Shown in pieces: positions 107-22,673 of a stretch of DNA of 62,737 bases; position 1 is the stretch's first letter, and the number at the start of each line of letters is the position of its first letter. This DNA is from Candidatus Woesearchaeota archaeon (GTDB lineage: Archaea; Nanobdellota; Nanobdellia; SCGC-AAA011-G17; UBA489). The notes beneath the pieces were generated by a model. It had not been told where the DNA came from, did not search any database, and saw nothing but the letters and a program-made list of their open reading frames with translations. A program made the translations under genes and the position numbers. Where the stretch lies: assembly GCA_018658265.1 (NCBI GenBank), contig JABHVN010000002.1, forward strand, positions 1-62,737. Direction: 5' to 3'.

Positions 107-115
107 CTTCTCAAA

Positions 116-5700: not shown

Positions 5701-6179
5701 CTATGATTACAGAAATTGAAAAAAATAAAAAATCAATTTTCATGAAAACATTCAAAATATTAAACAATAATTTCAGTAGAATATTTTTAACGCTATCAAA
5801 AAAAGGAAATGCTTCTATGGAACTTGAAAACAAAGAAGACCCATTAAGCGGAGGAATAGATATTAGAGTTAGAATAACTGGCAATAAATTCCTAGACATT
5901 AAATCTCTTTCAGGCGGAGAAAAAACAATGGCAGCGTTAGCATTTATTTTTGCAATTCAAGAACATCAACCAATGGCATTTTACCTATTAGATGAAGTAG
6001 ATGCAGCATTGGATAAAAGAAATTCAGAATTACTTTCAGAACTAGTTTCTAAGTATTCAGAAACGGCACAATATATTATGATTTCCCATAATGACAATGT
6101 AATCTCTGAAGCAGACTGTGTATATGGAGTAAGTATGCACGAAACAGGAATCTCTAAAGTAGTAAGTTTAAAATTATAA
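2754..6179 (+). CDS. smc: SMC chromosome segregation ATPase
   Basis: Walker A GPNGSGKSN, two long K/E-rich coiled-coil arms, central hinge, signature LSGGEKT, Walker B LLDEVDAALD, 1141 aa. Confidence 0.95.
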   Translation: MAIIKSMNLKGFKSFAKPLDLQFGKGFNCIIGPNGSGKSNVMDALCFVLGKLSAKSMRAEKSSNLIFNGGKKGSPQKEAEVSIVFSNDDNEFPIDADELKITRVIKNTGNSVYKINDQILTRQQILEVLAAGKIDPDGHNIILQGDIVRFMEMKPLQRKELIEEIAGISIYEDKKNKAMNSLTRVESQINDVSLILKEREAYLRELKKEKEQAEKYRKLEKNIKSNKATYLHVQITEKEKKLDDVKSKIAKQESQLSKFTENEKDIREKISTKKKELQDLNDDIEEKGEKDAIVLQDDIEKLKTDTAKNTERLSSCKSEVNKISERKKQLEVSIDDTTKTIKGLEESKKELLEEIKLLKEKEIKQSQKINQIKSKLGYSDNTELEKVETILDEKLKSYEDFQLKNQELLQKKFKLDAEISTLNEKISSVEKLEKDTSLQQTKKEVEKIAKELDKRLTEDTVLFSQLKKVKEDYSILNERLFKIQTQKSSMRASASVDLAIRKIKELKNPQIFGTVSELGEVEKKFSTALEVAAGPRTRSLVVQDDKVAAECIRTLKASRTGIATFLPMNKIRGRQVTRIKGPGVYGSAIELIDFDPRFKEIFSYVFSNTLVVENIETARKVGIGKVRMVTLEGDLVEVSGAMNGGYRTKRIGLGFQEKNLSSDLDKLSEKIDKAAALKTTFENRKLENENKISELRNLKAQLEAEVIKHERTSSGISLTELKKERDSNKINPVYQEFSELGKIMSTLNNEIQKLKAERIKLKGDSSPSEGKDELESSESRRLKTREEVVEKNTQIKNIEIQIANIYIPEKEKIHQLIKNCDKEKEEFKKEVKTLEELLKDQSSRLNKKESEKSKFQKLYKDLFSKRNKISENIQKLEASILLEASKEKTIKDRINDHAIIKAKVTAEVEALNSEFEEFKGVQLRRSHSVEELKLEIKNFESMLSKIGNVNMRALEVYEEILNEYTKLVEKRDKLSTEREDVLTMITEIEKNKKSIFMKTFKILNNNFSRIFLTLSKKGNASMELENKEDPLSGGIDIRVRITGNKFLDIKSLSGGEKTMAALAFIFAIQEHQPMAFYLLDEVDAALDKRNSELLSELVSKYSETAQYIMISHNDNVISEADCVYGVSMHETGISKVVSLKL

Positions 6180-7244
6180 ATTTTCTTCCACTTTTCTCAT
6201 ATTACCTATTTCTTTAGAATATACTGCAAATAATATGATAATCATTATAATAATTGATAACAAGATGATCTTAAACTTGACAGGGCTCAATCCATAATTA
6301 CTAACTATTGCAGGTTTCTCAGTAAATGGCTCATAGCGTCCAACCACCAATATTTCTGAGTCAACCAGTACATTATTTGCATATCTTACTTCAACACCTA
6401 CAACGTACAATCCATCCCTCACAGGAGGCATAGTCAAAGTCTTATCAAAACTAGATTTATCTCGAATAGTCATAAACTGGGAAGTCCTAATTAATTCATT
6501 ATTTTCAGAATCTTTGATAAAATATATTATTTCCACAACATCTCCGTCAAATCCTGAAAGGTCAACAGAAATCAATATATCTCCCCCAGAATTAATCTGT
6601 TTAAATTCTTCAGGAATACTTAATTCTAAATTTCCTCTTGCATTAATTGAACCAACATTCAGGATGATAGGAACATAACTTTTTAGGCCACTACCACTAG
6701 CAGATAAATAACCCGTTATAACTCCTAAATCCTTACCCATAAATCTAACAGTTACTATTTCTGATTCACCAATAGCAATAGTAATATTTGAAGGATCAAC
6801 AACAATATAATCACTAAGACTTGTACCGAAACTTAATTCAATATCATAATTAGCATTATTTCTCACAACTAACTCTCTTTCAACAATCCCTTTGTAAATC
6901 ATATCTAATTCTAATCTACCTGGATTAAATCCTAGTTTTCCACCTGAAGTCAAAACTTCTCCATCAGTTGTTGCAGCAGCCACTACCTCTGAAGTTGTGT
7001 CATTTGTATCTTCAGTTTCAGCATTGGGATCTTCAGTAACAGTGATATTCAAACTTCCAGCAACATTACCAGTAACATAAGATCTTTCTATTTCATTTTC
7101 GCCAACAACTGCTAAAATCTTAGAAAAATTAATTAACAATAAAATTAATATTACTAAAAATAGAAGAGTAAATGTATTGGTTTTTCTGTAAAAATCATCA
7201 GAATTAAATTTCAAACGTTTACCCCTTCTTTTTGACACACCCAT
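6174..7244 (-). CDS. Envelope protein with N-terminal basic segment plus TM, two beta-rich domains and a C-terminal TM (last gene of the surface island)
   Basis: MGVSKRRGKRLK..LLFLVILILLLINF anchor; beta-sandwich-like segments (LELDMIYKGIVERELVVRNNANYDIELSF; GLYVVGVEVRY); C-terminal IILLSIIIMIIILFAVY helix. No family recognised. Confidence 0.65.
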   Translation of the reverse strand: MGVSKRRGKRLKFNSDDFYRKTNTFTLLFLVILILLLINFSKILAVVGENEIERSYVTGNVAGSLNITVTEDPNAETEDTNDTTSEVVAAATTDGEVLTSGGKLGFNPGRLELDMIYKGIVERELVVRNNANYDIELSFGTSLSDYIVVDPSNITIAIGESEIVTVRFMGKDLGVITGYLSASGSGLKSYVPIILNVGSINARGNLELSIPEEFKQINSGGDILISVDLSGFDGDVVEIIYFIKDSENNELIRTSQFMTIRDKSSFDKTLTMPPVRDGLYVVGVEVRYANNVLVDSEILVVGRYEPFTEKPAIVSNYGLSPVKFKIILLSIIIMIIILFAVYSKEIGNMRKVEENL

Positions 7245-7283
7245 TATAAAAAAATATAGAAATAGATATTAAATACTTTTCTC

Positions 7284-7688
7284 CTAAGGTTTTAGGTATA
7301 TTACCTTTAAATTTCCAGAATAAGTTCCTTTTTCGACACCTGGAGGAAGTTTAAGAACTAATTCTAAATTCTTTTTTTCACCAGCCAAAACCATAAAATC
7401 TGTATCTTCAACATACATATAATCTATCCCAGTAAGCTTAACTTTTACAGATATATCCACATCAGAACTAATAACTATGTCTCTTCTAAGCACCATATCC
7501 CCTCTTGCAGTACCAAAATGTATTGCATCTTCATCAAGATTAATTCCTATATGATCCCCTACAATATAATCCACATCATAAGTTTTGTACCCAATAATTT
7601 TAACATTAATATAAATAAAGAACAATAAAAAAATTAACAAAACAGAAACCAAAATGCCCAAGAGAGTTATTTTATAATTAAATTTCAT
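7284..7688 (-). CDS. Small membrane-anchored protein carrying one copy of the shared beta-sandwich module
   Basis: N-terminal TM (ITLLGILVSVLLIFLLFFIYI). Module motifs AIHFGTARGD, DISVKVKLTG and GTYSGNLKVIY are collinear with 8921..9571 and with the C-terminus of the giant protein; 4-nt overlap with the upstream gene. Confidence 0.65.
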   Translation of the reverse strand: MKFNYKITLLGILVSVLLIFLLFFIYINVKIIGYKTYDVDYIVGDHIGINLDEDAIHFGTARGDMVLRRDIVISSDVDISVKVKLTGIDYMYVEDTDFMVLAGEKKNLELVLKLPPGVEKGTYSGNLKVIYLKP

Positions 7689-8896
7689 TTTCCCAATTTA
7701 TCTTGTAATTGATCCATCTTATTGGAATAATCTTCTTTTTTATCGGATATATGGCCTTTTTTCCTTAAGGTTAACCAAAGAAAATTTGCAAAAATCAAAC
7801 ATACAATTAGAATTCCTGCAACCATTTCTTTTGTAAAGAATTTCTTATCACTGATAACTGAAAAATCAAATTTCTGTATTTTTTCAGAGCCGTTATACTT
7901 TATTGTAACAACCAATTGATAAGCTCCTTGATTAACATTGGAAATATCTAAATAAACAGGTACATTCTTTTCACCAAGAGCTTTCAAATCAAATCCATTT
8001 GAAATAGATCTTTCTGTAATAGGTACGCCATTTTTTTCAATATACGTTTCAATAACTACATCGTTAATAGCAATATTCCATTTATTATCCACAACAAACA
8101 TTAATTTCCTAATTCCTCCAAAAGTTGCATTAAAAGGATATTCAATAACTTCTACATCTTCATATCCAACTTTAAAAGTTATATTTCTATGGTCTGTTTC
8201 AATTCCGTCATAAGTTACAAAAGAGTCTGCAACAAATGTTCCACCGCCAATTTCAGAACTATCTACATTAATTGTCTTTGTAACTTTTACACCTGAAATT
8301 AAAGACGAAGCACTATCTTCAACTTCAAAAAGTTTCTCTTCGGTTGAAGGATCATAGATTATTAAATTAGATTTAAGTCCAAAAATATTTCCTTCTCCCT
8401 TGTTAGCTATATTGAAATTAAAATTCAATTCTTCCCCTTCATTTACATCTTCAACACTCAAACCATATTCTAAATACCTCTCAGGATACGGAACATCAAC
8501 AACAACTCTTGCAACTACCACCAATGAAGCAGATATACCTTCTTTTCTTTCAGTTATTTCTTGATTAACATTTAAATCATGATTAACTGGGCCATGGAGA
8601 TCTAAGCTAGCAGGAAAAGAATATTCTACAATATACTTTGTTGAAGACCCAGCCTTAACTTCTTGTACACCATTAACCATATTAAAATACTCAGAAAAGG
8701 GGCCTCCCAAATTAACTGAAGCATTAACAGATTCATCTCCGTTGTTTATTAGCATAATCTCAAAACTTCCTGCACCGTATGGTTCAAAGGAGATGTAGGT
8801 ATCACTTGGTGCAATTCCCAATGCATTAACTGTAGAAGTAAGAACTAATAAGAAAATTAAATAATTCAACACCTTCTTCATAGTTTTATTAAACAA
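7685..8896 (-). CDS. Secreted multi-domain beta-rich protein with C-terminal TM anchor (paralog of 9836..11041)
   Basis: Signal peptide ending NALGIAP, CARDB-like NIANKGEGNIFGLKSNLIIYDP, C-terminal helix GILIVCLIFANFLWLTL followed by RKKGH. Confidence 0.7.
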   Translation of the reverse strand: MFNKTMKKVLNYLIFLLVLTSTVNALGIAPSDTYISFEPYGAGSFEIMLINNGDESVNASVNLGGPFSEYFNMVNGVQEVKAGSSTKYIVEYSFPASLDLHGPVNHDLNVNQEITERKEGISASLVVVARVVVDVPYPERYLEYGLSVEDVNEGEELNFNFNIANKGEGNIFGLKSNLIIYDPSTEEKLFEVEDSASSLISGVKVTKTINVDSSEIGGGTFVADSFVTYDGIETDHRNITFKVGYEDVEVIEYPFNATFGGIRKLMFVVDNKWNIAINDVVIETYIEKNGVPITERSISNGFDLKALGEKNVPVYLDISNVNQGAYQLVVTIKYNGSEKIQKFDFSVISDKKFFTKEMVAGILIVCLIFANFLWLTLRKKGHISDKKEDYSNKMDQLQDKLGK

Positions 8897-8920
8897 AAAT
8901 AGTTTATAAATTTAACTAGA

Positions 8921-9571
8921 TTAAGCACCTAACGACCTTGCCGTGAACTGTATAAAGTCTCCAGCAGTACCATTAACTGTACTATTCAATGCAATAAGTA
9001 TGGAGATATTAATTTCGTCTGTGAATCCTCCAGCACTAGCATACGAAAAATTAGGACATACTGTTTTTTCTCCAGTGTCCAAATCCTGAGCAATTAATGC
9101 AAAAGCCATGTCTACTGATGCAGCACTATAACAAGACGAATTAGTCCATTTAGTTAAACTTGTATTCTCTAATCGATATTGATAACTTGGAGTGGGAGTG
9201 GAAAATAAATCTAAAGCTGTTTTTGTACTATTTATAGTTAGATTAACATAAACATTTCCATCATTTCTTAACCAAAAAGAAGTTGGACTTGAGAAACCAT
9301 TAGGATTAGCATTAGGTTCAGTGGAATTAATCAGAGTATTACCAGTAGTACTTACATACCCAGTTCCAAAATTAACATTTGAAGCCAATAATGCCACATC
9401 AACAGTTGTAGATACTGTTACATTAACAGATCCAGTTGTTTCATTAATAATATTAAATCCTGTTAATCCGCTAATTCCACCTGTAACAAATAAGATGGTA
9501 GAAATAGATCCAAGAACTACTAATAACGTAAGTAATCCTGTAAAATTTAAAACTCTGTCAGTAATTTTCAT
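8921..9571 (-). CDS. Small N-anchored or secreted, sequon-rich protein consisting of the shared beta-sandwich module
   Basis: N-terminal hydrophobic helix, more than 10 N-x-S/T sequons. Motifs NVNFGTGYV, FWLRNDGNVYVNLTINS and EINISILIAL..GDFIQFTA are collinear with the last ~160 aa of the 2,626-aa protein. Confidence 0.7.
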   Translation of the reverse strand: MKITDRVLNFTGLLTLLVVLGSISTILFVTGGISGLTGFNIINETTGSVNVTVSTTVDVALLASNVNFGTGYVSTTGNTLINSTEPNANPNGFSSPTSFWLRNDGNVYVNLTINSTKTALDLFSTPTPSYQYRLENTSLTKWTNSSCYSAASVDMAFALIAQDLDTGEKTVCPNFSYASAGGFTDEINISILIALNSTVNGTAGDFIQFTARSLGA

Positions 9572-9789
9572 GTGCTTCCCTCTTCAGTTTCAGGATTAGG
9601 TAAAATTTCTATATTAACTTTTGCACCTGTGTTATCTTCATATGATTCTTCTTCTTGATCAACAGTAACAGTATCCTCTTCAACATTACTAACAACTGTC
9701 CAAGTAATTAATAAACTAATAAATATAACTAAAACTAATAATGCAAAAACAAGTTCTCTCTTAACTACCGTCTTTTTCGCCCTAACCAT
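9568..9789 (-). CDS. Small single-pass membrane protein with acidic tail
   Basis: MVRAKKTVVKRE + LVFALLVLVIFISLLITWTV + Glu/Asp-rich tail; 4-nt overlap with the downstream gene suggests translational coupling. Confidence 0.5.
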   Translation of the reverse strand: MVRAKKTVVKRELVFALLVLVIFISLLITWTVVSNVEEDTVTVDQEEESYEDNTGAKVNIEILPNPETEEGST

Positions 9790-9835
9790 TGAACAAAACC
9801 TATTATAATGAATATATAAACTTTGCCATAGTTCT

Positions 9836-11041
9836 CTAATCTCTCCTTTTAAACCAATGCATCCAAACCAGATTAATCATAATTAAAATAATCAATATGC
9901 TTAATAATATCCAAGAAAGATTGCTAGTAAATTTATCCTCATAACCTTGTTTTACTCCTTCAACAACAAATTTATTTTCGTAAAACGTCGTTTCTATATT
10001 TTGTTCGATATCTTTGTTTCCATAATGCACTCTTAATTTAGTGATATATTCTCCTTCCTCTAAGTCTCCAACATCAATATGTCCTGTAAATTTTCCTTCT
10101 TTTCGTTTGGAAATGCTTTCCTTAGATGTGACAAATGAGCTTATTAATAAATTATTCAGATCATAAACACTTATTTCTGCATAAACATTATTTAATTCTT
10201 CATTCCAAATATTTTTAACAGTCACTTCGAATTTCACAGCATCTCCCAAAACTTCTCCCACAATTAAGTCATTAATACTCATTTTTCTTCCTTCAACAAT
10301 AAACTTATCTTCAAATTCATTAATTTTAGAATCGTATTCTAGAATAACATTAACAAAATACTCTCCAGGATTAACTTCAGTTGACCAAACTAATCTAATC
10401 TCTTTTCTTTCTCCAGTAACTATAGAAATAGATTTACTTTTTAGTTCATCAATAGTATTTTGTCCATCATGAATATTCAAAGCAACGCTAACTTTTGAAA
10501 GATTTTCTACACCCAAATTCTCAACAGGAATTACAAAAATAGTATTTGATCCTACGTCCCCCTCATAAATGTAAAAATCAGAAGAAATATATTTGGTATC
10601 ATGAGGTACTTTGACCCTCAGTAAACTAATCAAACCAACACTGGTACCTATTAAATTCTCTTTTAGATCTACAATTTCCCTAGCAGTAAAATAGATATCA
10701 TTATTTCCCTGAGAGATATCATTTTTTGAAAGAGTTTTTGGAATATTCAATGAATATTTGACAATAGTTTCTTTATTGGCCTCCAACGACAGAATATTTC
10801 CTTTTTCTAAAACTACATATTTAGACAATTCTCCTTCTACACCTATTGAAACCTTAGTAAACCTGTCTAAAGTATTAACTACTTTAAATTCCGATTCAAA
10901 ATTTAAGCCATCTTCAAAATCAACAATTTTTTTGGCAGGAGAAATGCCTAAAGCACTAACCAATGAAACAGTTAAAACTAACAAAGTAAAAACACTTAAC
11001 AAATTAAAAATAAATTTCTTACCCTCCATTGATTTCACCAT
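9836..11041 (-). CDS. Secreted multi-domain beta-rich protein with C-terminal TM anchor (paralog of 7685..8896)
   Basis: Signal peptide ending SALGISPA, CARDB-like VENLGVENLSKVSVALNI, C-terminal helix WILLSILIILIMINLVWMHW followed by FKRRD. The start overlaps the end of the giant ORF by 23 nt (alternative ATG at 11029). Confidence 0.7.
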   Translation of the reverse strand: MVKSMEGKKFIFNLLSVFTLLVLTVSLVSALGISPAKKIVDFEDGLNFESEFKVVNTLDRFTKVSIGVEGELSKYVVLEKGNILSLEANKETIVKYSLNIPKTLSKNDISQGNNDIYFTAREIVDLKENLIGTSVGLISLLRVKVPHDTKYISSDFYIYEGDVGSNTIFVIPVENLGVENLSKVSVALNIHDGQNTIDELKSKSISIVTGERKEIRLVWSTEVNPGEYFVNVILEYDSKINEFEDKFIVEGRKMSINDLIVGEVLGDAVKFEVTVKNIWNEELNNVYAEISVYDLNNLLISSFVTSKESISKRKEGKFTGHIDVGDLEEGEYITKLRVHYGNKDIEQNIETTFYENKFVVEGVKQGYEDKFTSNLSWILLSILIILIMINLVWMHWFKRRD

Positions 11042-14000: not shown

Positions 14001-17000
14001 TACAATATCGAAAGGACGTTTACTAAAATTATAGCTTACTTTCGTACCATTGGTTACATTCGCCTTGTAAACTAAATCATCCAATTCAGGATTGCTATCA
14101 TTAGAAGCATAAATCTTCAAAGTAACATTATCCACAGGCAACAGGTCGTCAACAACTGTTACATTAAGCTCAACACCTGCAGTACCAGAATCATGATTAG
14201 TTGTATTTGCAGGAGCAGTAATTGTCACATTAGGTATTTCATTTGGATCTATAATGTGATCAAACTCTAAAAACGCAGTATTTAATCCATCATCATTAAT
14301 AACTTTCAAATCAAATGTATCATTCTCTCCAGACATAGCCGTCAAATAGGCCTTATAATACCCTTCAGAACTAATGTTATCAAATGTAGTAATTAAATTT
14401 GAAGTATTCTCTTCGTAAACCTTCACATGAGTATTCGCACTTTGATTATTCCTTACATAAATTTTAATGTGGTGTGCAGGAGTTAAATTTTGTTCAAAAG
14501 TTACCCTAACAATCTCAGTATTATTAATCATTTCAGTCCAATTACCATCCAAAGCATTAGTTTGATTATACACATCTGAAATAAAAGAATAATTTTCATC
14601 CAAATGTTGTGCAGCAGTTATATTTATTTCACCAAAACCTGGGTCATTAGGCGTGATAGTTATATTGTAATCTTGACCCGGAATCATCCCTTCTTTTAAT
14701 AACGTCCATGACCCTCCGCAAGATTGATCAGTATAATTCCAATCCGCACATTTATACAAAGTATTGGAAGTTGCAGTAACGGTTACCGTTGCATTTACAA
14801 AATTTTGTAGTTTGGGATTAATTGCAAATGTTTTTTGAAATTTATCTATTGGAACTGCTTTATCCAAATCAATAATTTGATTTACCCCATTAGACATGTT
14901 ATAATCTTCAAAAAGGATTTGTTTGATAGTTCCATCAATGGGTTTAAGAATAATATCATAAATTCCAGAAGATAAGCTCAAGTTGTGAATAGTTCCGTTT
15001 TGAGAATATACATTTCCTCCCCCATCACTATTAATTTCTAACGACACATTAACTGGAACACCATTTCCATCAACAACAGTTTCATTAACTGTCACATTAG
15101 AAGATTCTCCGCCACCAGAATAAGCTGGCCATTCAATTGTTTGAAAAGTATAATCTTGTATCTGTCCACTGTCAGATTGCCATAAATTTGCAGTAGAAGT
15201 ATCGGTTAGTTGAACTGCAACATATCCCCTTGGCCATGCCGTTCCAGTTCCACCGGACTGTGAACTAACACCTGCAATAGAAGTTTCTCCTAATCCGTAA
15301 GTTAAACCTGTAAGTGTTACTTGCCAATTATCTTCTTCCTCACCACCAGTTGGACGCGCAGTAGGATTATAATGAGTGACTTTCATAGGATAGTTTTCGG
15401 TTTGAGTATTAGAAATAACCCATGTTACCGCATTCATATTTGATCCCCAATTCGTAGTGCCCCTAGGCAAACTATAAGTAACTGTATTTGTTGCAGTCAA
15501 TTCAACTTCTGCACCACCTTGGATCAAACCATCATAATTATTTCCTGCTTCATTTCTCTGTTGAGTATGGAAAAATGCACGACTAATGGCACCAACATCA
15601 GTGATAGTATCATATTGGATTGCAGATGCATTAAAGGCATGCGCTACTCTTTGAACATTCCAATTTGAACCCTTATATTCTACAATTGCATAACTAATAT
15701 CGCAATTATCGCTTGCAGCTTCTCCCCTTGTAAATCTGGGTAAATCTGAAACGGCAACCCATGCAGAAGTTACCATACAAGATTGATGATCGTTTCTCCC
15801 TACATCAGAATTACTGGCGCCTGTCAAAAATACAACAACATCTGCATCATCAGTGGGAGCAATAATTGCTCCATCACAAGTTAAACTAGATGTTCCAAAA
15901 GAACAAGTTCCAGTATCAATAACATCCATTTCATTAGGATCTCCAATTGTTCCACTATACTCCCAGATTTCCCAAGAAATTCTATTGTTTGTTGCAGACC
16001 CACGTCTTGTAAATGTAATTGTCCCACTTCCAGCTGTAAGTCCTGTATCATCAGAAATGTAAGTAGTATAATCATCCACATTTTGGTTTCCTCCACCAGA
16101 TGTGCTTCCAACAGCATTGTTTCTTGAAGAAACCTGTTTAATAAAACAACTTCCAGTACATTGATTAAAGTCTACACCCTCTGTCAATATTCCAGTTAGG
16201 GATGCAGAACCCATGATCAATGAACCCCTTTGAATAGTAAAGTCGCTTGTACCACTAGGATCTACAATATAATCAAATTTTACTTTACCGTCAATTATTT
16301 TCAAATCAAATGTATCTTGTACACCTGCAAGTCCAGATAAATAAACTTTGTTAAATTCATCATTTCTAATAGCAACAAACTCAGCTATAATTTCTTTCCC
16401 ATCGACAGTATAAATTTCAATTTTTGGAGACCCTTCAATAATTTGAGGATAAATTGTTATATCGTTATCAGATCTTAAGTTTTTTTCAAAAGTTACTCTT
16501 ACATATTCACCATCATTTATTGTCTCACTCCAAATTCCATCTAATTTACTTACATTACTGTAAATATCTGACATAAATGTCCTATTTACATCTAAATGCA
16601 ATGCATTAGTAATTACAATTATTTCATAAGTTTCATTATTTTCTAAAAGTGGTACAACCCATTCAACATAGTCAACAAGACCATCTTGATTATTATCTTT
16701 TAATGAAAAGTTGTGTTTTTGTTTAATTTCTTTCCCAGTAAATGTGTCTAAAATTATTCTATAAAGATTAACTTTATCAGCCTCGCTTTCAGGAATGTTA
16801 ACAAAAGATAATACATTTTCATAAGTTAAATCTGATTTTAATACTACCCTCACACCTTCGGAGATATTTTCTACCTCTAATGTGGGACCAGGCGTTTCAT
16901 ATTCAATCTCAACAGTTTCAACTAGATCATCAACTTTAACTATATCTACCTCTGCACTAAGATTTGAATCATTCACAATTGTTTCTTGTAAAGGTAGGGT

Positions 17001-18899
17001 CTCTATCAAAGGAACTTCAGAAACGACCATCCCTGTTATTGAATTTCCGGTTATTGAATTCAAAATTCCTTTTGTAAATCCTTCTGAAGAATCTCCAGTT
17101 AAATTAATAATCGTCCCATTACCTTCATCCAAACTAGCAGAAACAATAGGGGCAGTTTTTCCATTAACTATTTTATTCAAAGTTATATTCTCAGCTACAT
17201 CAGGAAGTTCAAACTCAACCTTCTCTTTAGCAGCATCAAGCATTATTTTTTTCTTCCATTTTACAGGTTGACCTATAATCGCACCGTACTGTATTGTTTC
17301 TTCAGTAACATTTCCAACAGTAGAAACTATGGTAGTTGTTTTGGTAACATTTATCAAAGTTTCAACAATAATCTCTGGTTGAATATGTTCAACTCCAAGG
17401 ATAATTTTTCCTTGTCCATCATTAAAAGATAAAGAATAGTTAACTCCTTCTAAAGATTCATACTCACTTTTAATCAAACTTAAATCCAAAACTGAATCTT
17501 TAATATAAAATTTCAAAATAAAATTATTACTTAATACATTCTTTAATTTACAAGTATCTTCGCATCCAGAATCAAATGAATTTATAGTATAATCGCTAAC
17601 ATTCATAATATCTAATAGGTTAACCAAAAAATCTTCTTTCCCTACTTCAATTTCTTCTTCAGATTCAATTTCTAGATCTTCTTCAATATCTTCTAATTCA
17701 AATACTCCTTCTGCAAATGCCATAACCTCTCTAGCTAAATCTGCAGTATAATTTTCAGAATTGTTAATATCGAACAAATATATCCAATCAGTTAAACAAA
17801 TACCAAATTCAAAATCCCAGTAACTACAACCATACAAAAAGTCTCCTTCAGATTGTGCACTAAAAGAAGTATTAGTTTCATTAAAGGCAGTAAGGTTCAA
17901 TCCACTAAAATCAAACCCAAATACTCTTTCAAAAGATATGTTATTTGGTTCAATTAATCCCTTAGAAGAATACTCTTCATATGCAAACCACCCTTCTTTT
18001 TCAGGATATTCTATTTCAATAAAATCATCAAGTTCAACAACAGCAGTACCATTGCTCCCATTCAAAGATTCATACTTAACTTTTTTACCTCGTGAATCAA
18101 TTACATTAAAACCAGTTAATAATGATGCAATTTCCTTGTAATTCTTAATATTTTCAACAGGGTCTTCAAGAACAGCATTACCAGTTATACCTATTGAATC
18201 AAAAAAACTTTCATCATTAGATTCACTATCATAAACTAAATATGTATCTCCTGAATCAACATCAGATAAAAATATTTTAGCTACACCTTCTTCGAAAGAA
18301 GCAGTTCTTCCAGATAGCTTCAAACTCTTTAGTTTTTCAATTCCATTAAAATTTAAACTATACTCAGAACTTTCACTAACTAATAATGAGATCTTATGTT
18401 CTCCTTCTTCAACAGGCTTTGCTTCAGAAAAAATAAAATCTCCAGTTATTTTATTTCCTTCAGAAACTACATTACCAGTTATAGGGATTCCATCTTCGAA
18501 GCCTTCTCTAGCAATATCTGAAAATGTTTTAAATTCAATAGCAAAACCACCACTAATATCGTTACTGTTATCAACATTAAGGATACCTCCAAAATGCATA
18601 AATCCTACTAACATAGTTATCAAAACAAAAGACAAGAATATTCTATCTTTCATATGTACATCATGATCTTTAATTAAGATAAGATGTGTTCGAGGATTTA
18701 ATGTTTTTTTCAGGGTTGCACTACTTCTTTTATGGACCGATTTAGAACTTTCTTTCTTTAATACTTTTAATTTCTGTCCGGCTTTCTTTAAATCACTACC
18801 AAGATAAACAGATTTAACTTTTCCATTTTTCAGTCTAATACTATCGTAATAGTATGGACCTAATTTTTTACCCCTTTTTGTAATATACTTCTTATACAA
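11019..18899 (-). CDS. Giant (2,626 aa) membrane-anchored surface protein: two Ig-like+LamG units, a duplicated ~120-aa module, a Cys-rich region and a C-terminal beta-sandwich module shared with two small neighbours
   Basis: Uninterrupted 7.9-kb ORF. TTG start at 18899 preceded by AGAGGGA. Residues 1-82 are Lys/Arg-rich with GPYYYDS..NGKVKSVYLG. The first ATG (18653) opens the hydrophobic helix MKDRIFLSFVLITMLVGFMHFGG. LamG-type (Laminin_G_3-like) C-terminal signatures are GGIDDFIVINRTLTSEEINQ (~13345..13405) and GSIDEFAILNKSLNASEVLDMY (~12355..12420). Dozens of N-x-S/T sequons. Confidence 0.85.
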   Translation of the reverse strand: MYKKYITKRGKKLGPYYYDSIRLKNGKVKSVYLGSDLKKAGQKLKVLKKESSKSVHKRSSATLKKTLNPRTHLILIKDHDVHMKDRIFLSFVLITMLVGFMHFGGILNVDNSNDISGGFAIEFKTFSDIAREGFEDGIPITGNVVSEGNKITGDFIFSEAKPVEEGEHKISLLVSESSEYSLNFNGIEKLKSLKLSGRTASFEEGVAKIFLSDVDSGDTYLVYDSESNDESFFDSIGITGNAVLEDPVENIKNYKEIASLLTGFNVIDSRGKKVKYESLNGSNGTAVVELDDFIEIEYPEKEGWFAYEEYSSKGLIEPNNISFERVFGFDFSGLNLTAFNETNTSFSAQSEGDFLYGCSYWDFEFGICLTDWIYLFDINNSENYTADLAREVMAFAEGVFELEDIEEDLEIESEEEIEVGKEDFLVNLLDIMNVSDYTINSFDSGCEDTCKLKNVLSNNFILKFYIKDSVLDLSLIKSEYESLEGVNYSLSFNDGQGKIILGVEHIQPEIIVETLINVTKTTTIVSTVGNVTEETIQYGAIIGQPVKWKKKIMLDAAKEKVEFELPDVAENITLNKIVNGKTAPIVSASLDEGNGTIINLTGDSSEGFTKGILNSITGNSITGMVVSEVPLIETLPLQETIVNDSNLSAEVDIVKVDDLVETVEIEYETPGPTLEVENISEGVRVVLKSDLTYENVLSFVNIPESEADKVNLYRIILDTFTGKEIKQKHNFSLKDNNQDGLVDYVEWVVPLLENNETYEIIVITNALHLDVNRTFMSDIYSNVSKLDGIWSETINDGEYVRVTFEKNLRSDNDITIYPQIIEGSPKIEIYTVDGKEIIAEFVAIRNDEFNKVYLSGLAGVQDTFDLKIIDGKVKFDYIVDPSGTSDFTIQRGSLIMGSASLTGILTEGVDFNQCTGSCFIKQVSSRNNAVGSTSGGGNQNVDDYTTYISDDTGLTAGSGTITFTRRGSATNNRISWEIWEYSGTIGDPNEMDVIDTGTCSFGTSSLTCDGAIIAPTDDADVVVFLTGASNSDVGRNDHQSCMVTSAWVAVSDLPRFTRGEAASDNCDISYAIVEYKGSNWNVQRVAHAFNASAIQYDTITDVGAISRAFFHTQQRNEAGNNYDGLIQGGAEVELTATNTVTYSLPRGTTNWGSNMNAVTWVISNTQTENYPMKVTHYNPTARPTGGEEEDNWQVTLTGLTYGLGETSIAGVSSQSGGTGTAWPRGYVAVQLTDTSTANLWQSDSGQIQDYTFQTIEWPAYSGGGESSNVTVNETVVDGNGVPVNVSLEINSDGGGNVYSQNGTIHNLSLSSGIYDIILKPIDGTIKQILFEDYNMSNGVNQIIDLDKAVPIDKFQKTFAINPKLQNFVNATVTVTATSNTLYKCADWNYTDQSCGGSWTLLKEGMIPGQDYNITITPNDPGFGEINITAAQHLDENYSFISDVYNQTNALDGNWTEMINNTEIVRVTFEQNLTPAHHIKIYVRNNQSANTHVKVYEENTSNLITTFDNISSEGYYKAYLTAMSGENDTFDLKVINDDGLNTAFLEFDHIIDPNEIPNVTITAPANTTNHDSGTAGVELNVTVVDDLLPVDNVTLKIYASNDSNPELDDLVYKANVTNGTKVSYNFSKRPFDIVSDTLFGFHFDQILSKGESSTKVYDWADVKNGTPGGDAAVDYSNDIFGGNFEFDGTGDWVTVAPGYTEIQHRWNLTIMGWLRSDDITQSRMFAAQGVFDPAGAPGQYVGFFVGQNGKNMAVIQGNGASDTTSLTPGFFLNNGEWVHMAITRFQNGSYAVYRNGVLNNTFTNTHAIYTAAILNFRIGASNSNNGGNPLPWNGGIDDFIVINRTLTSEEINQTLKLTDTTYYWNASGDDSQLVNNSDLFQFDIGAVVTNTHPNATVIAPINTTNYTDVGEILLNSTVLDAEDPLMFVKIYGSSGQTKSDVSYSDMLYQNISWQNNTYLTYNWTAPVLVPDSNYLLLAHFDNNTKYGENSTHVFDFADSDGVQNGTMGGAARINKTGGRLGGTFFSTATSIDNLVNFGDQDNWVSENNISYSFWAKPRILSDTRGIFDKRAAVSSGFAIRQVGDDFGLKIEGSTPIIDGVFQKDEWTHIVVSFNESDQVTIYIDGVFNSTFTVPSMPNNNAAVLIGVGRTAVGLIDYEFNGSIDEFAILNKSLNASEVLDMYRLPSGDHSWFVEVDDYDTEEYVPKLSNESDSWMFTIDRKPEINSLSIGPTGVNRTTGINCTFTPLDDWDSTLDVTIKYYNGTDLFATKTPTGLTSGYPYTDNLSAFTYNHFENYSCNITTTDTRSSVSDQENSSYIFIENYEPGTAVLNGPDETITYTNRTPTFNWTPSDIFDRLPSVSNTSCVSEGNFFCQGRTSDPDQDQVNHTLNISCFVVAGGTCDDEREYLVVENSTNCDANANGYLDNEDNCTFTLPTELTRFYDDNNFYRWTVKSEDPYVQEEDLPTVFNYNLSTYIALDILDQVVDFGSLGVGVRSETSGCDLSTQTPTPCPIWIENSGNVLADVNITGPTVAFWDTQSLPHSIDYFSVKVGDGTEGSSFDSADSNITYRIMPASGVTEKFINNLSKDDSSDEARIDFNISVPVGELAGAKGMILELTTWYGEINGG

Positions 18900-18974
18900 A
18901 CGTATCCCTCTTCTTAAAAGTAATAAAAAAAGGTTGCACTACGGCATTATAAACATTATGGTTAAAAAAATAAA

Positions 18975-20582
18975 TTAATAAATTGGCAAATTATTAGTTC
19001 CGTTTAACCAAAAGGTATATTCAAAGGCAGTCCTTCCATTAAATGCGCTGTTTAGGTCACTAACAATATATTTTATATCTGCTTTATTATTATCTGTCAC
19101 AATTTCATAGTATCCGGAATCTGCTGAACCCCAAATTCCTTTATTATAATCTGCAACGCCATTATTATCGTAATCCATTACATCTTTGAAGCAATTTAAT
19201 TTTGACCAAGGCGCTCCAACACCAGAAGATTTTCCACCAGAGATATAATACACTCCATCACCTTGATTATTTGCATCTTTTTTTTCACCAATAGTTGCTA
19301 CATGATCATGACTCAAAAAGAAAAATTGGCCATTATACTTTTTCATTAATTTGTGCAATGTTGCTTGCTCTCCTAAAAAGGTACCATTAACTTCTCCATT
19401 ATCCGTAGCCTTCAAACTACTTCGCCCATAAAAATAACAAGATATTGATGAATTTGGATCAGTTACTCCTCCATCTATATGCTCAATAAATACAAACTTC
19501 CATTTTCTATCAGAAGTTTTCAAAACCTCTTCAAACCACGATAATTGTTGGGTACCCAAGGTCCATTCATTAACATTTTGAGGAATATCCTCGGGACCGC
19601 CCATAATATCTAAAACTATTATTTGAACATCGCCAGAAGAAAAAGTATAATACTGACCTTCGGGATTACCAATAAATACTTCGCTAGGATTAGGTAAATA
19701 TTTCATTCGTGCATTATGGCTTAAATTTGCAATTTTATCAGAATGATCACATTGGTCAAGTGCACTATTGGGGTCTCCAAAACTAGTTTCTCCATCATGA
19801 TTTCCTAACTTGTAAATCATTGGTGCAGAATCAGTAATTGCACCATAAACATCCTCGCCAAGGATTAATTCATATCTTAATTCTGCTTCTCTTGCATTTT
19901 CAACAGAGGTATCTCCAGAATCTTCACCATTAATATTACACCTATCACACCCATTACAATGAGTCATAGCTTCATCTCCACCCATTACAAAAAATTCTGC
20001 TTTAGGGGAAATATCAATTATATTATTCAATGTTTGTTTATGTAAATCCATTCCATCTATAGCCCTTTGATTTGGAACTCCAGGAGCACAAACCTCATTC
20101 CTATTTCCCCTGGAATATAATCCATAATAATGGGAGTCTGCCATTGCTACAAAGGTAACTGGATTAGTATCATCCCTATCTCTTAAGGTTCTAAATGTAT
20201 ATTCTTCTCGAACTCCAAAACTAGTTCCATTAGCTTTTTTACATCTAGTTCTATAAAAATATCTTTTTCCAGGATCTAATCTATCTAATTTGAAAGTTAC
20301 TCTTTCTCCTGCTAAAACAGTTTTAATAGAAGTACTCGCTAAATATTTTTCTCTTTTATAACCCTACTCAATGTAAACATCCGCATCTTCTTTTGGAACC
20401 ATACTAACATCCATGGTAGTTAATTGGGGATTAGATAATGTTTCTTCAATAGTAAACTCTACATCGCATAAATACTTTTCAGAACTAACTAAACTTTGTG
20501 CATAAATTGATTGAATAGAAACAACTGCTACAAATAAGAATATTACTACAGAAAAAATAACCGATGCTTTCTTTGAATACAT
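18975..20582 (-). pseudogene. Secreted purple-acid-phosphatase-like metallophosphoesterase interrupted by an in-frame TAG at 20364..20366
   Basis: ORFs 20364..20582 (signal peptide MYSKKASVIFSVVIFLFVAVVSIQSIYA) and 18975..20144 share one frame. The 73 codons between them are open and encode GERVTFKLDRLDPGKRYFYRTR..EYTFRTL (PAP N-terminal Fn3-like domain) running into the metallophosphatase motifs FVAMADSH, GGDE, GNHD, FIEH, LSHDH. Confidence 0.75.
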
Positions 20583-20603
20583 AAATAAAATTAAAATTTA
20601 AAG

Positions 20604-20612
20604 TTTATAAAA
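20604..20612 (-). promoter_or_regulatory. TATA-like box (TTTTATAAA on the minus strand) upstream of the phosphoesterase ATG
   Basis: Sits about 25 nt upstream of the ATG at 20582, implying a leaderless or near-leaderless transcript; sequence only. Confidence 0.3.
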
Positions 20613-20636
20613 CTTTCACTAAGGAATAAAAATAAG

Positions 20637-20659
20637 AAAAAAAGAGGGGTTAACCTCTC
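20637..20659 (-). terminator. Hairpin plus T7 tract directly after the S-layer-like gene
   Basis: Minus strand reads GAGAGG-TTAA-CCCCTC (one mismatch) followed by TTTTTTT, starting 5 nt after the TAA of 20665..21987. Confidence 0.45.
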
Positions 20660-20664
20660 TTTAT

Positions 20665-21987
20665 TTAGTTTCTCGGATAATATTGATAATAGGTTTGACC
20701 TTCAAGAGCGCTTGTCTCTTCATCTTCATCATCATCGCTTCTAACTTTTCTAAAAGCAATAACAATAGCCAAAACTACCAATACTATCAACAAGATAAAG
20801 AATATTGCAGTTAAAACAGATTTAACAGTATCGTTAGATTGTTCTACAGTATTCTCAACTTCCACTTTAGTAGTAAAAACTAGTTCGCTTAGAACATCAG
20901 TTCCTAGCATAACTTTTGCTACCCATGTATGACTTGCAGCATCTACTGAATCATATGGTGTCACAGTAATTGTAACTTCACCAGTTGAATCCGGCATAAT
21001 AGTCAAGAAACTTGGTTGAACTACAGCTTCTCCCCATGCAGATACACCATCTACAGTTACGGAATAAACTCCAGGTTCTAATCCTAAGTTAGCCATCATC
21101 ACCTTATATTCTACTGATTCGCCAGCATTAACTACTTTTGAACTTGAATCACTATTGATTACAGTTTGTGCGCCAGCAGCTTGTGCTGTACCTTCAACAT
21201 TAAGGCTTAGAGTCTTAGTCAAAAAGCTATGACCTCTATTATACTCAATATCTACTTGTACATCATAAGTACCTGTTGCAGCATCAGATGGAATTCTTAA
21301 AAGTAAATCCATTTGCTTACTGTTATCGTTTCTTAAATGATCTTCATTCTCTTCATCAAATTCGGTGTTAAGCTCGTCAAGATAATTAACTGTGCTTATA
21401 CCTAAAGCTGGAATGGATACAGTAACTTTAACATCGTTTTCTTCTGTTTCACCTAAGTTTTCTAATCTAACTGTGGTAAACAAAGAGTTACCTGCAGCGA
21501 TTGTGCTACTTGGGTTCAAAAGAACGTCAAAAATTGCTAAGCCGTGTCTCTGCTCGTCAATAAATAAACCGAATGTTGCAGTTTCTTCATTATTTTGATC
21601 AGATGCTTCAATTCTTAATGTATAATCTTCAGAAGCTTCGATGTCTTCAGGAACATACAAAGTTAGAGTCTTTTTGTAAGTTTTTCCTTCATCAAGATTG
21701 AATAATCCTGTTGAATCTGAAATACTTCCATACTCATAACCATTAATTTTAGCGGTGATTTCAACATCTTCTACAGTTGCATTTGCAATTAACCATACTT
21801 CAATGTCTAATCTCTCTCCCCTTTCTATATCAAGGGCTGTGTTTACGTCAGTTTCTAAGCCGTTTACTTTGATTATATCAAATGAATAATCATTTGTACT
21901 TGCGCTAACAGATACAGCTGTACCTACCAATGCTACCAAAGCTAGAACAAAGAAAGCTATATTTTTCATGTGTCTTGTCATTTTCAT
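20665..21987 (-). CDS. S-layer-like / CARDB-repeat surface protein with C-terminal TM anchor and acidic tail
   Basis: Signal peptide (..VGTAVSVSAS), beta-rich repeats with CARDB-like RLENLGETEENDVKVTVSIPALG, C-terminal helix LTAIFFILLIVLVVLAIVIAF followed by RKVRSDDDEDEE. Has its own TATA box, a GGGGGG Shine-Dalgarno-like element and a terminator. Confidence 0.75.
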   Translation of the reverse strand: MKMTRHMKNIAFFVLALVALVGTAVSVSASTNDYSFDIIKVNGLETDVNTALDIERGERLDIEVWLIANATVEDVEITAKINGYEYGSISDSTGLFNLDEGKTYKKTLTLYVPEDIEASEDYTLRIEASDQNNEETATFGLFIDEQRHGLAIFDVLLNPSSTIAAGNSLFTTVRLENLGETEENDVKVTVSIPALGISTVNYLDELNTEFDEENEDHLRNDNSKQMDLLLRIPSDAATGTYDVQVDIEYNRGHSFLTKTLSLNVEGTAQAAGAQTVINSDSSSKVVNAGESVEYKVMMANLGLEPGVYSVTVDGVSAWGEAVVQPSFLTIMPDSTGEVTITVTPYDSVDAASHTWVAKVMLGTDVLSELVFTTKVEVENTVEQSNDTVKSVLTAIFFILLIVLVVLAIVIAFRKVRSDDDEDEETSALEGQTYYQYYPRN

Positions 21988-22068: not shown

Positions 22069-22076
22069 TATATAAA
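22069..22076 (-). promoter_or_regulatory. Consensus archaeal TATA box (TTTATATA on the minus strand) for the S-layer-like gene
   Basis: Exact TTTATATA about 85 nt upstream of the ATG at 21987, followed by GGGGGG about 10 nt before the ATG. Confidence 0.4.
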
Positions 22077-22213: not shown

Positions 22214-22287
22214 GGGGATATAGCATAATCTGGTTAGTGTTGCCGCCTCCAGAGCGGCGTGTCCAGGTTCAAATCCTGGTATCCCCA
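22214..22287 (+). tRNA. tRNA-Trp (anticodon CCA)
   Basis: Manual cloverleaf: acceptor GGGGATA/TATCCCC, D stem GCAT/GTGT (two G:U pairs), anticodon stem GCCGC/GCGGC with loop CTCCAGA, T arm CCAGG-TTCAAAT-CCTGG, discriminator A, 74 nt, no intron, no encoded CCA. Confidence 0.88.
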
Positions 22288-22289
22288 GA

Positions 22290-22673
22290 TCATTCTTCTT
22301 CTTTGAATGTTGAGGCAATATCAATGATGTATTTTCCTTCAGATAACTTATACACTAAAGGTTCACCCTTAAACAAATCTACTAAATCAATTTCAAAATG
22401 TCCAGGTTTCAAAACACGGATAGATTCTAAGTCTAAAACTACTGGCAAATCTTTTTTGTTCTCATCGTCACTTTTTTCGCCAACAAGTTCCATGGCATCT
22501 TTTTCCATTTGAACTTTGTCAACAGTACTTAGACTAGTAGTAAGTTTTTTTGCTTCTTCAATGGATTTTTCTTTCATGAAGAAAAAGAATTTTCCACCAC
22601 AAGTACATCCTGTAAGAACTTCTCTAGAACCATCTTCATATAACTTAGAACATCTTACACATTGGTGAGGCAT
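22290..22673 (-). CDS. Zn-ribbon protein (archaeal DUF2072-like)
   Basis: N-terminal CVRC..x14..CTC zinc ribbon (MPHQCVRCSKLYEDGSREVLTGCTCGGKFFFF). Lies in the conserved archaeal neighbourhood with a DUF2073-like protein and a small GTPase. Confidence 0.7.
   Translation of the reverse strand: MPHQCVRCSKLYEDGSREVLTGCTCGGKFFFFMKEKSIEEAKKLTTSLSTVDKVQMEKDAMELVGEKSDDENKKDLPVVLDLESIRVLKPGHFEIDLVDLFKGEPLVYKLSEGKYIIDIASTFKEEE

Follow-up and report, generated by a model that had tools for sequence, protein, structure and literature searches.

A conserved seven-gene cluster of DPANN archaea that may encode a surface adhesin complex resembling Firmicutes WxL/Csc clusters

We analyzed a 62,737-nucleotide (nt) stretch of DNA from Candidatus Woesearchaeota archaeon, a tiny archaeon of symbiotic type from a DPANN lineage; the whole stretch is called the window below. 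An earlier reading of the letters alone (the sequence-only reading) had picked out ten envelope proteins around a giant of 2,626 amino acids (aa) and proposed that they form a surface attachment or fiber apparatus. We assign seven of these genes to a core whose order recurs in other DPANN genomes, and we give a little better than an even chance to the interpretation that the core is an operon for a surface adhesin complex held by beta-strand complementation, the archaeal counterpart of the Csc/WxL clusters of Firmicutes. Complexes of the latter kind have so far been known from Gram-positive gut bacteria only. The open reading frames (ORFs) lie where they had been placed, all on the minus strand. 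They are given here in the order of transcription, with coordinates from the ORF list, together with two signals that precede the giant gene.

20665-21987, minus strand: 440-aa surface layer (S-layer)-like protein
20364-20582, minus strand: 72-aa ORF with a signal peptide
18975-20144, minus strand: 389-aa phosphoesterase ORF
18946-18953, minus strand: TATA-like box TTTATAAT, candidate operon promoter, ~45 nt ahead of the TTG start of the giant gene (a direct reading of the sequence)
18906-18910, minus strand: GAGGG, a Shine-Dalgarno-like motif preceding the giant's TTG start
11019-18899, minus strand: giant 2,626-aa adhesin, TTG start
9836-11041, minus strand: 401-aa protein (NCBI HOB91_00085)
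9568-9789, minus strand: 73-aa protein
8921-9571, minus strand: 216-aa protein
7685-8896, minus strand: 403-aa protein
7284-7688, minus strand: 134-aa protein
6174-7244, minus strand: 356-aa protein

The core spans 6174-18899 and comprises the genes for the giant LamG protein and for the 401-, 73-, 216-, 403-, 134- and 356-aa proteins. The tight packing described for these genes was confirmed, with successive spacings from the giant gene onward of -23, +46, -4, +24, -4 and +39 nt. The 401-aa gene overlaps the giant gene by 23 nt, the 73-aa gene overlaps the 216-aa gene by 4 nt, and the 403-aa gene overlaps the 134-aa gene by 4 nt. A gap of 75 nt separates the phosphoesterase ORF from the giant gene, and within the core a promoter-like box was found before the giant gene only. 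Because this box and the GAGGG motif precede the giant gene and the genes downstream overlap, the arrangement from the giant gene through the 356-aa gene fits a single predicted operon. A hydropathy scan identified N-terminal hydrophobic segments in the 440-, 72-, 2,626-, 401-, 73-, 216-, 403-, 134- and 356-aa products and C-terminal transmembrane segments in the 440-, 401-, 403- and 356-aa products. The same scan found neither a signal peptide nor a transmembrane segment in the 389-aa ORF, so the statement that every product carries a signal peptide or anchor fails for that ORF as called.

We looked up homologs of the 401- and 216-aa proteins on their own contigs and found nine further loci with the same gene order in Woesearchaeota, Pacearchaeota and Nanoarchaeota. 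The shared order is adhesin, first ~400-aa protein, ~73-aa protein, ~216-aa protein, second ~400-aa protein, ~140-aa protein and a variable anchor protein. Protein lengths in gene order are as follows.

Window: 2626, 401, 73, 216, 403, 134, 356 aa
L002: 2184, 399, 78, 216, 397, 134, 354 aa
L003: like L002, with the 73/216 pair duplicated
L004: the window's order
L006: >2797, 163, 409, 70, 233, 378, 143, 674 aa
L008: 2140, 156, 405, 73, 225, 401, 142, 364 aa
L009: >794, 172, 390, 80, 202, 387, 144, 426 aa
L007: LamG protein 608, then 327, 73, 213, 387, 150, 214 aa
L013: LamG protein 706, then 360, 226, 79, 226, 412, 153, 657 aa

Partial forms of the order are present in L001, L005 and L012. The contigs of these Woesearchaeota stem from marine, Tara and groundwater data sets. 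Conserved synteny in DPANN genomes had been named as a check of the proposal, and the seven-gene order does recur across DPANN orders. Identity to the window proteins drops to 22 to 28% among the related loci. Judged from these comparisons, the recurrence of the gene order exceeds chance, and strict order and content at ~25% identity across ten loci argue for functional coupling; since the order is kept across loci, we define the core as these seven genes. A profile scan of the genome contigs returned a single close relative, and a profile protein search added 403-type paralogs only.

The loci also vary. The 216-aa gene is duplicated in L003 (L003:2033-3789), L007 (L007:10001-10642 and 12625-13269) and L013 (L013:8987-9667 and 10001-10681). 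The L003 duplication is tandem and takes in the 73-aa gene. In L007 the two copies are identical over their first 60 residues and have divergent C-terminal parts, a pattern that suggests exposed-subunit variation. Three lineages carry an extra 156- to 172-aa gene, encoding an N-terminal transmembrane helix, between the adhesin gene and the first 400-aa gene (L006:6848-7339, L008:8056-8526 and L009:2387-2905); it is absent from the window. We rejected the idea that this gene is a module that became fused to the giant in the window, as the giants of L008 and L006 already end in the C-terminal module described below, and the extra ~160-aa family matched none of the other cluster families (hhalign, <=17%). 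L012, a 6.5-kb contig of GCA_039801425.1 binned as "candidate division WOR-3 bacterium," carries a Pacearchaeota-type cluster with a NosD/beta-helix/LamG adhesin, a 333-aa protein and a 214-aa protein, and its WOR-3 label is probably a binning error.

The giant has a basic cytosolic N terminus (residues 1-82), a transmembrane helix (89-107) and an ISG motif (115-117), followed by two copies of a ~150-aa unit, two units that each pair an immunoglobulin-like (Ig) domain with a LamG domain, and a C-terminal module (the P-module) that is also found in the 216-aa protein. The features of the giant that are referred to below are as follows.

18654-18899, minus strand: N-terminal motif of the giant, conserved in the window, in L002 (L002:3457-3700) and in L008 (L008:1644-1890)
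13347-13844, minus strand: LamG (Laminin_G_3) domain 1, residues 1686-1851, PF13385 E = 3e-18 for the segment
12369-12800, minus strand: LamG (Laminin_G_3) domain 2, residues 2034-2177, PF13385 E = 5e-19 for the segment
11022-11498, minus strand: C-terminal P-module, residues ~2468-2626, homologous to the 216-aa protein

In the whole protein the two Laminin_G_3 domains were detected at E = 8.5e-36. Residues 738-889 repeat as 1402-1560 (the ~150-aa unit, E = 3e-24) and residues 1565-1883 as 1901-2217 (the Ig-plus-LamG unit, E = 3e-22), and about 85% of the giant has no Pfam match. The protein contains 95 N-glycosylation sequons. The NCBIfam model for TafC gave a weak match of 45 bits, compared to a cut-off of 410, over the LamG region only. 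The motif ahead of the transmembrane helix is basic, is predicted to be cytosolic and reads YKKYI-x-K/R-KGKK-x-GPYYYDS-x-RL-x-NGKVKS-x-YLGSDL. It has no Pfam match, a database search with it returned three short fragments only, and it is probably overlooked by gene callers. The motif might serve in targeting or insertion.

The proposal of a common module in the 216-aa protein and at the end of the giant was upheld by profile comparison. The C termini of the giants matched the 216-aa family (60 sequences) over 145 columns (hhalign, 98.3%, E = 1.7e-14); by BLASTP the giant's C terminus and the 216-aa protein matched at E = 0.019 only. A hidden Markov model (HMM) of the 216-aa family also matched the large proteins of L009, L003, L007 and L004 (E = 5e-13 to 7e-10). 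The P-module ends every large protein that could be read to its C terminus, which are those of L002, L006, L008 and L009 and the 608-aa LamG protein of L007.

The 216-aa protein consists of a transmembrane helix (residues 5-29), a TG motif (L36-T37-G38), a strand (G47-SVNVTV) and a beta-sandwich that contains Cys147/Cys172 and in which the NDGN motif is invariant, and it carries 12 N-glycosylation sequons. An exhaustive phmmer search placed it in a family of 129 representative clusters at E < 1e-3, all of ~200 to 230 aa. No Pfam family covers any of them. The named members are Woese- or Pacearchaeota, except for one contig that is binned as WOR-3 and has the archaeal gene order. Family members begin with M-E-I-S-N-K-T-L and a transmembrane helix of ~25 residues, followed by an [IL]-T-G-[FY] motif, in which the Gly is invariant in 60/60 members, and a strand with the consensus G-T-V-N-[VLI]-T-I. 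The N-D-G-N motif and the two cysteines are invariant as well.

An AlphaFold2 (AF2) model of the 216-aa protein had a predicted local distance difference test (pLDDT) score of 87.1, and when it was compared to the PDB with Foldseek, most of the leading matches were donor-strand-complemented filament subunits. The best match was the archaic Csu pilus (7zl4, E = 5e-3, probability 0.97), and others were the TLP-1a/b pond fibrils, the Sulfolobus thread (7pnb), FimA, CfaB, CsuE, PapE, FimG, FimI and CanA. Probabilities reached 0.98, and target-normalized template-modeling (TM) scores reached 0.56. The scores are weak, but the enrichment for such subunits is specific. We considered the TLP-1 pond fibrils as relatives of the P-module and rejected them: the two have nothing but the fold in common, and the closest predicted structures to TLP-1 are bacterial, e.g., those of Flavobacteriales. 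Sequence searches of the PDB with the 401- and 216-aa families returned nothing useful.

The 401- and 403-aa proteins are paralogs, as had been proposed (BLASTP E = 4e-12; hhalign E = 2e-56). In cross-locus comparisons 56 of 78 best hits are positional orthologs, so the duplication is older than the lineages sampled. The 401-aa protein begins with a signal peptide (site ...SALG/ISP), which is followed by three Ig-like beta-sandwich domains and then by a transmembrane helix and a basic tail at the C terminus; the 403-aa protein has an identical architecture. An AF2 model of the 401-aa protein, built from 17 sequences, had a pLDDT of 81.7, with domains at 31-145, 152-250 and 254-360 and the transmembrane helix at 370-399. 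The top Foldseek matches of this model in the PDB were Hydin-type ASH-domain arrays, followed by entries for WxLIP, the partner protein of WxL domains in Firmicutes: 9i1y, "WxLIP from Enterococcus faecium" (E = 5e-9), and 9i25, "WxLIP from locus A bound to long WxL" (E = 1.6e-8), which is a deposited structure of the complex. Among the top 50 matches the WxLIP entries had the highest target-normalized TM score, 0.42 over 259/267 residues. Foldseek on AlphaFold models had been suggested as a check and was run for two of the products. It led to WxLIP for the 401-aa protein, although not exclusively, and to pilins for the 216-aa protein, although weakly.

Profile comparisons gave a similar picture. 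Two Enterococcus WxL clusters (plasmid records L010 and L011) were retrieved through a published WxLIP peptide, and the archaeal 400-aa family matched their two WxLIPs with hhalign (94.8%, E = 5e-8), a match that covers the last Ig domain and the transmembrane helix and whose score the helix inflates. PF11797 (WxLIP_HBD/DUF3324) matched the homolog P0014 with 37.9 bits, above the gathering cut-off of 28.9; it matched 2 of the 12 members of the 400-aa family, was faint in the L006 ortholog and did not match the window's own 401- and 403-aa proteins. The other Pfam matches in cluster proteins (CARDB, Wzt_C and DUF11) are generic and below cut-offs. The anchors thus look like distant relatives of WxLIP, with moderate scores.

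One element of the 401-aa protein is a candidate for strand donation:

10607-10708, minus strand: long beta-hairpin of the N-terminal domain of the 401-aa protein, residues 112-145, candidate donor strand

The second arm of this hairpin is conserved among 25 sequences as I131-G-[TA]-S-V-G-V...V145-P-Y-P, and residues 121-140 have low pLDDT values of 65 to 69. AF2 predicts that a disordered WxLIP hairpin folds into a strand and thereby completes the beta-sandwich of WxL (PMC10599100). The archaeal hairpin lies at the corresponding end of domain 1 and by analogy may act as a donor strand.

The remaining core proteins are small or variable. The 73-aa protein has an N-terminal transmembrane helix, an acidic spacer and a C-terminal strand (NTG-AKVNIEILP), with an isoelectric point of 4.26, and the C-terminal motif is kept in 7 loci. 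It matched the N-terminal part of the 216-aa family (hhalign, 93%, E = 3e-7), and the 216-aa family HMM also finds it. The 134-aa protein has an N-terminal transmembrane anchor and a single Ig domain. The sequence-only reading had grouped it with the 216-aa protein as a module protein, an assignment that we reject; it matched instead the first Ig domain of the 403-aa protein (hhalign, 85%, E = 6e-6) and of the 401-aa protein (77%, E = 2e-5). Its 143-aa ortholog in L006 has a weak match to ASH (PapD-like clan). The 356-aa protein has a basic cytosolic N terminus, a transmembrane helix, the signature "YVTGNVAGSLNITV", an acidic linker, HYDIN/ASH-type Ig-like domains and a C-terminal transmembrane segment. 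Its Pfam-type matches are weak (Cep192_D3 and HYDIN-like Ig). It occupies the most variable position of the cluster (214 to 674 aa in other loci), and the HMM of the 134-aa family matches its orthologs (E = 7e-6).

Four of the products, the giant and the 73-, 216- and 356-aa proteins, have a signature in common: a transmembrane helix, [ILV]-[TS]-G and, within ten residues, G-x-[VI]-N-[VI]-x-[VI]. Through this TG-strand signature the four products could share a processing site or a donor strand. We found no dedicated signal peptidase gene near the cluster in scans of the cluster and its flanks. Sequon excess was measured against a shuffle expectation. N-glycosylation sequons are 2.5-fold more frequent than expected in the 216-aa family and the giants, compared to 0.8- to 1.3-fold in the 400-aa proteins, 0.4-fold in the 73-aa family and 0.3-fold in the extra ~160-aa family.

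In Firmicutes, three components define a WxL/Csc cluster: WxLIP, a small WxL protein and a large one whose last domain is WxL (PMC9772566, PMC10599100); WxLIP is CscA, with the layout DUF916 plus DUF3324 plus a transmembrane segment (PMC1534035, PMC9772566, PMC10599100). The archaeal locus parallels this in several respects. It has a small acidic protein made of the module only, often duplicated, and a large adhesin with the same module last. It has a ~340- to 400-aa anchor in which Ig-like domains stand between a signal peptide and a C-terminal transmembrane helix, and by analogy the anchor likely donates a strand to the module. Its large proteins, like those of the bacterial clusters, carry beta-helix/pectate-lyase-like and lectin-type adhesin domains (L007 and L012 versus L010). 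The locus differs in that its module is not WxL: there are no W-x-L motifs and no match to the WxL Pfam family PF13731, and the WxL Pfam models matched none of the ten products and none of the 60 members of the 216-aa family. The archaeal anchors have three Ig domains rather than two and always occur as two ancient paralogs. The 73-aa transmembrane-plus-strand protein, the 134-aa single-domain protein and the double-anchored protein are additional, and the locus has no LPXTG protein or sortase. The adhesin reaches 2,800 aa and has its own N-terminal transmembrane helix and cytosolic motif. The host archaeon also lacks peptidoglycan, the reported WxL ligand, to which the module of WxL clusters binds non-covalently.

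It is well established that archaea lack murein. We confirmed the earlier observation that WxL motifs, sortase signals and class III signal peptides are absent from the cluster. Formally, a WxL cluster must have at least two proteins with a WxL domain (PF13731, dual W-x-L motifs) and at least one WxLIP, and the locus falls outside this definition for want of any WxL domain. It may still work like WxL/Csc and be distantly related to it through the anchor. The earlier likening of the locus to WxL/Csc clusters is borne out by the shared module, the structure and profile matches to WxLIP, and the PF11797 matches in two relatives. The companion claim of a distinct system is half right: the lack of a WxL domain agrees with it, and the resemblance of the anchors to distant WxLIP relatives does not. 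As a whole, the central idea of a surface attachment apparatus with WxL/Csc logic has held up and been strengthened, and the overall interpretation is partly supported.

If the adhesin complex is built as we favor, the two WxLIP-like proteins (401 and 403 aa) would stand in the membrane after Sec export, and each would insert the hairpin strand of its N-terminal domain to capture a P-module, by analogy with WxLIP and WxL. The gene pairing suggests that the 401-aa protein would partner with the giant and the 403-aa protein with the 216-aa protein. The glycosylated giant would be shown outward, where its LamG lectin-type domains could bind glycans of a host cell or substrate. The TG-strand segments would be processed or tethered donor strands joining one P-module to another or to the membrane. 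In that case the 73-aa protein could be a minimal membrane-tethered strand and the 134-aa protein a spare acceptor domain, so that the 73-, 134- and 356-aa proteins and the TG-strand segments would serve as additional strand donors, acceptors and anchors. In this cell, which lacks peptidoglycan, transmembrane helices would take over the wall-binding role of WxL. The 216-aa module could serve as a 1:1 docking partner or as the unit of a polymerized fiber. Polymerization into a fiber and a role in host attachment, as proposed earlier, are inferences.

Several results weigh against the WxLIP-type complex. The P-module shows no similarity to WxL: hhalign gave 0.3% for eight Enterococcus WxL domains versus the 216-aa family and 0.2% versus the giant C termini, and WxL chains are absent from the top 50 fold matches. 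We therefore rejected homology between the P-module and the WxL domains of the two Enterococcus clusters. The pilin matches of the 216-aa model are weak, as its best E value shows, with query-normalized TM scores of 0.3 to 0.4. For the 401-aa model, Foldseek returned 438 PDB chains with E <= 1e-3, mostly unrelated tandem-Ig proteins such as Hydin, integrins and complement C3. The 400-aa family gave no significant match to PF06030 (DUF916; E = 0.45), and the profile of that family did not retrieve WxLIP from PDB sequences. The helix-driven part of the hhalign score counts here as well. A giant with its own N-terminal transmembrane helix may need no docking anchor, and the partner assignments, cleavage at TG and any polymerization are purely inferential.

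A donor-strand-exchange pilus is the alternative that survives best, although we consider it unlikely. Here the 216-aa protein would be the major subunit and polymerize via its N-terminal strand after cleavage at TG, the giant would be a tip adhesin like FimH or TafC, the 401- and 403-aa proteins would be membrane-anchored chaperones or an assembly platform, and the 73-aa protein would be a tethered terminal donor strand at the base. The fold matches of the 216-aa model fit this alternative, since the leading ones are donor-strand-complemented pilins, and an adhesin with a C-terminal pilin-like domain has the layout of a chaperone-usher tip adhesin. The N-terminal strand signature common to several cluster proteins resembles the N-terminal extension of pilus subunits. 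The 73-aa protein is essentially a transmembrane helix plus a strand and is translationally coupled to the 216-aa gene. Duplication of the 216-aa gene, with identical N termini in L007, is common for major pilins, and the very high sequon density is like that of glycosylated archaeal threads (PMC9715654). However, the module of the giant contains the candidate donated strand in cis as well, so this strand may be no more than an ordinary first strand. In the 216-aa protein the hydrophobic helix, at 25 residues, is closer to a signal anchor than to a signal peptide, the cluster lacks a neighboring dedicated signal peptidase gene, one fiber does not need two conserved chaperone paralogs, and the fold E values are weak.

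Comparison with known filaments bears on this pilus in both directions. Chaperone-usher pili (archaic Csu, type 1 and CFA/I) supply the best fold matches of the 216-aa module (7zl4, 8psv, 4y2l and 6fjy), their tip adhesins place binding domains before a C-terminal pilin-type domain, and Ig-fold partner proteins of the archaeal locus could donate a strand as their counterparts do. In contrast, archaea have no outer membrane, the locus has no usher, its partners are membrane-anchored and three-domain rather than soluble two-domain PapD-type proteins, and there is no sequence similarity and only weak fold scores. Models PF00345, PF02753 and PF00577 had no matches in the cluster proteins.

The archaeal donor-strand filaments, namely, the Sulfolobus threads (Saci_0406), the Pyrobaculum and haloarchaeal bundling pili (TasA-like), tafi (TafA/C/E/F, with the TafD peptidase and TafG) and the Pyrodictium cannulae (CanA), are likewise built from glycosylated beta-sandwich subunits that carry an N-terminal strand and are exported by Sec or Tat, and the 216-aa model matched two of their structures by fold (7pnb and 9h8b). 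TafC, the tip protein of tafi, joins a LamG domain to a pilin-like domain (PMC11821415). That pilin-like domain lies at the N terminus, and the one of the giant at the C terminus. The cluster proteins have no sequence similarity to the subunits of these filaments, including DUF1102 and TasA/camelysin, and TafA/DUF1102, the TafD (SipW-like S26) peptidase and TafG (DUF5305) are absent from the cluster and its flanks. The match of the 216-aa model to the Saci_0406 thread 7pnb is weak (E = 1.3e-2, TM score 0.27 to 0.30), PDB sequence searches gave no match to it, and the N-terminal consensus of the 216-aa family differs from the N-terminal Asp and YYY motif of the threads. None of these archaeal filaments has WxLIP-like anchors, and none comes from a DPANN lineage.

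A more specific version of the fiber, to which we attach a rather low probability, is a chaperone-assisted donor-strand-exchange structure in which glycosylated 216-aa subunits lie under a giant LamG tip, the WxLIP homologs are the chaperones and the 73-aa protein is the basal anchor. If it were true, WxL/Csc and the DPANN system would be two cases of one "chaperone without usher" pathway in single-membrane cells, and the fiber would be a host-attachment organelle of Woese-, Pace- and Nanoarchaeota.

It is improbable that the cluster encodes ordinary co-transcribed envelope or S-layer-associated Ig proteins with no specific complex, whose likenesses reflect common beta-sandwich folds. The 438 mostly unrelated tandem-Ig chains matched by the 401-aa model would be expected in that case, as would the generic, subthreshold Pfam matches and the S-layer-like Ig protein next to the cluster. 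Arguing against it are the strict gene order and content at ~25% identity across ten loci, the 4- to 23-nt gene overlaps, the one module common to the small protein and every large adhesin, the N-terminal signature of four products and the complementary glycosylation potential of the module proteins and the anchors. We regard a type IV pilus-like filament, in which the 216-aa protein would be the pilin and its N-terminal helices the core, as largely refuted and very improbable: the lollipop-shaped AF2 model, with a 25-residue hydrophobic helix and then a beta-rich domain, and the heavy N-glycosylation potential are as in archaeal pilins and archaellins, but the M-E-I-S-N-K-T-L N terminus has no class III motif ([KR][GAS]) ahead of the helix, genes for an assembly ATPase, a platform protein or a prepilin peptidase are missing in and near the cluster at every locus, and no type IV pilin or archaellin is among the top 50 fold matches.

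The adhesin complex that we favor can also be set beside the giant LamG surface proteins of DPANN archaea (SPEARE of Nanohaloarchaeota, and those of ARMAN and Undinarchaeota), which are likewise very large, secreted or anchored, come from small-genome symbionts and are commonly taken to mediate contact with a host. The papers we found describe each of them as a single gene, whereas here the giant is part of a seven-gene operon and carries a C-terminal docking module in common with a small protein. The operon itself is not described in the literature that we searched, in which bacterial WxL systems, archaeal donor-strand filaments and the DPANN giant LamG proteins surfaced.

Woese- and Pacearchaeota are abundant, mostly uncultured DPANN archaea that are thought to attach to other cells. 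We know of no attachment machinery defined for them. The operon is a concrete, conserved and testable candidate, with seven genes that each have a predicted role. If it works as we favor, it would extend the WxL/Csc-type surface complex beyond Firmicutes to a wall-less archaeal setting and would suggest that the strand-donating WxLIP-type anchor is an old, portable way to hold large adhesins on single-membrane cells. Over 91% of known WxL sequences are in Firmicutes (PMC9772566). The 216-aa family and its "transmembrane helix, TG, strand" signature are unannotated and could become profile models for finding such loci in metagenomes.

The genes upstream of the core do not appear to belong to it. 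The phosphoesterase is best described as one gene:

18975-20582, minus strand: PhoD/purple-acid-phosphatase-like metallophosphoesterase with a signal peptide, accessory, in a merged frame

The 72-aa ORF, a TAG codon (20364-20366), 73 codons and the 389-aa ORF form one reading frame, so the stretch holds nine genes, one of them interrupted, and not ten proteins as had been counted. The merged product aligns full-length with a 688-aa PhoD-like protein of L008 (E = 7e-28), and the TAG aligns with a Tyr of that homolog (VYIE*G versus VYVEYG). Pfam and NCBIfam scans gave weak PhoD matches. We considered recoding of this TAG and rejected it, because TAG terminates 13 of the 56 ORFs in the window and is an ordinary stop here. 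From these alignments we interpret the frame as a single gene for a secreted phosphoesterase into which a nonsense mutation or a sequencing error has introduced a stop. A phosphoesterase neighbors the cluster in one other locus, L008, where it lies upstream of the giant gene, and is absent from L002.

The 440-aa protein has a signal peptide, NPCBM_assoc/CARDB-type Ig repeats and a C-terminal transmembrane helix. It matches PF10633 (E = 7e-11) and, below that model's cut-off, NF033506 for putative S-layer proteins (E = 5e-20). The promoter and terminator that had been ascribed to its gene were recovered as a TATA-like box at 22069-22076 and a terminator-like hairpin at 20639-20662, and from these elements the gene is predicted to be a separate transcription unit. 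An S-layer-like gene adjoins the cluster in close relatives only (L002 and L004), upstream of the giant gene. The S-layer-like and phosphoesterase genes, which had been counted as parts of the system, are thus not core.

The single-strand arrangement does not set the locus apart either. The minus-strand run extends to 28509 through genes for OapC, OapB, a GTPase, archease, RtcB, superoxide dismutase and a peroxiredoxin, and on the other side lie SMC, polyprenyl synthase and RNase HII; since the run continues into housekeeping genes, strand coherence is not a feature of an island, contrary to what had been proposed. The OapC and OapB genes (22290-23158, minus strand) flank the cluster as they do in L002, and tRNA-Trp (22214-22287) adjoins them. 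The replication origin may lie close to OapC/OapB; a 2-kb GC-skew profile showed no sign change there. The SMC protein beside the cluster in L008 (L008:13870-18930) has 1,686 aa with an intein and a LAGLIDADG endonuclease, according to precomputed Pfam matches, and that of the window (2754-6179) has 1,141 aa and no intein. Near the start of the window, a 326-aa ORF with a GTG start (53-1033, plus strand) overlaps tRNA-Met (32-107) by ~55 nt, and its true start is probably further downstream.

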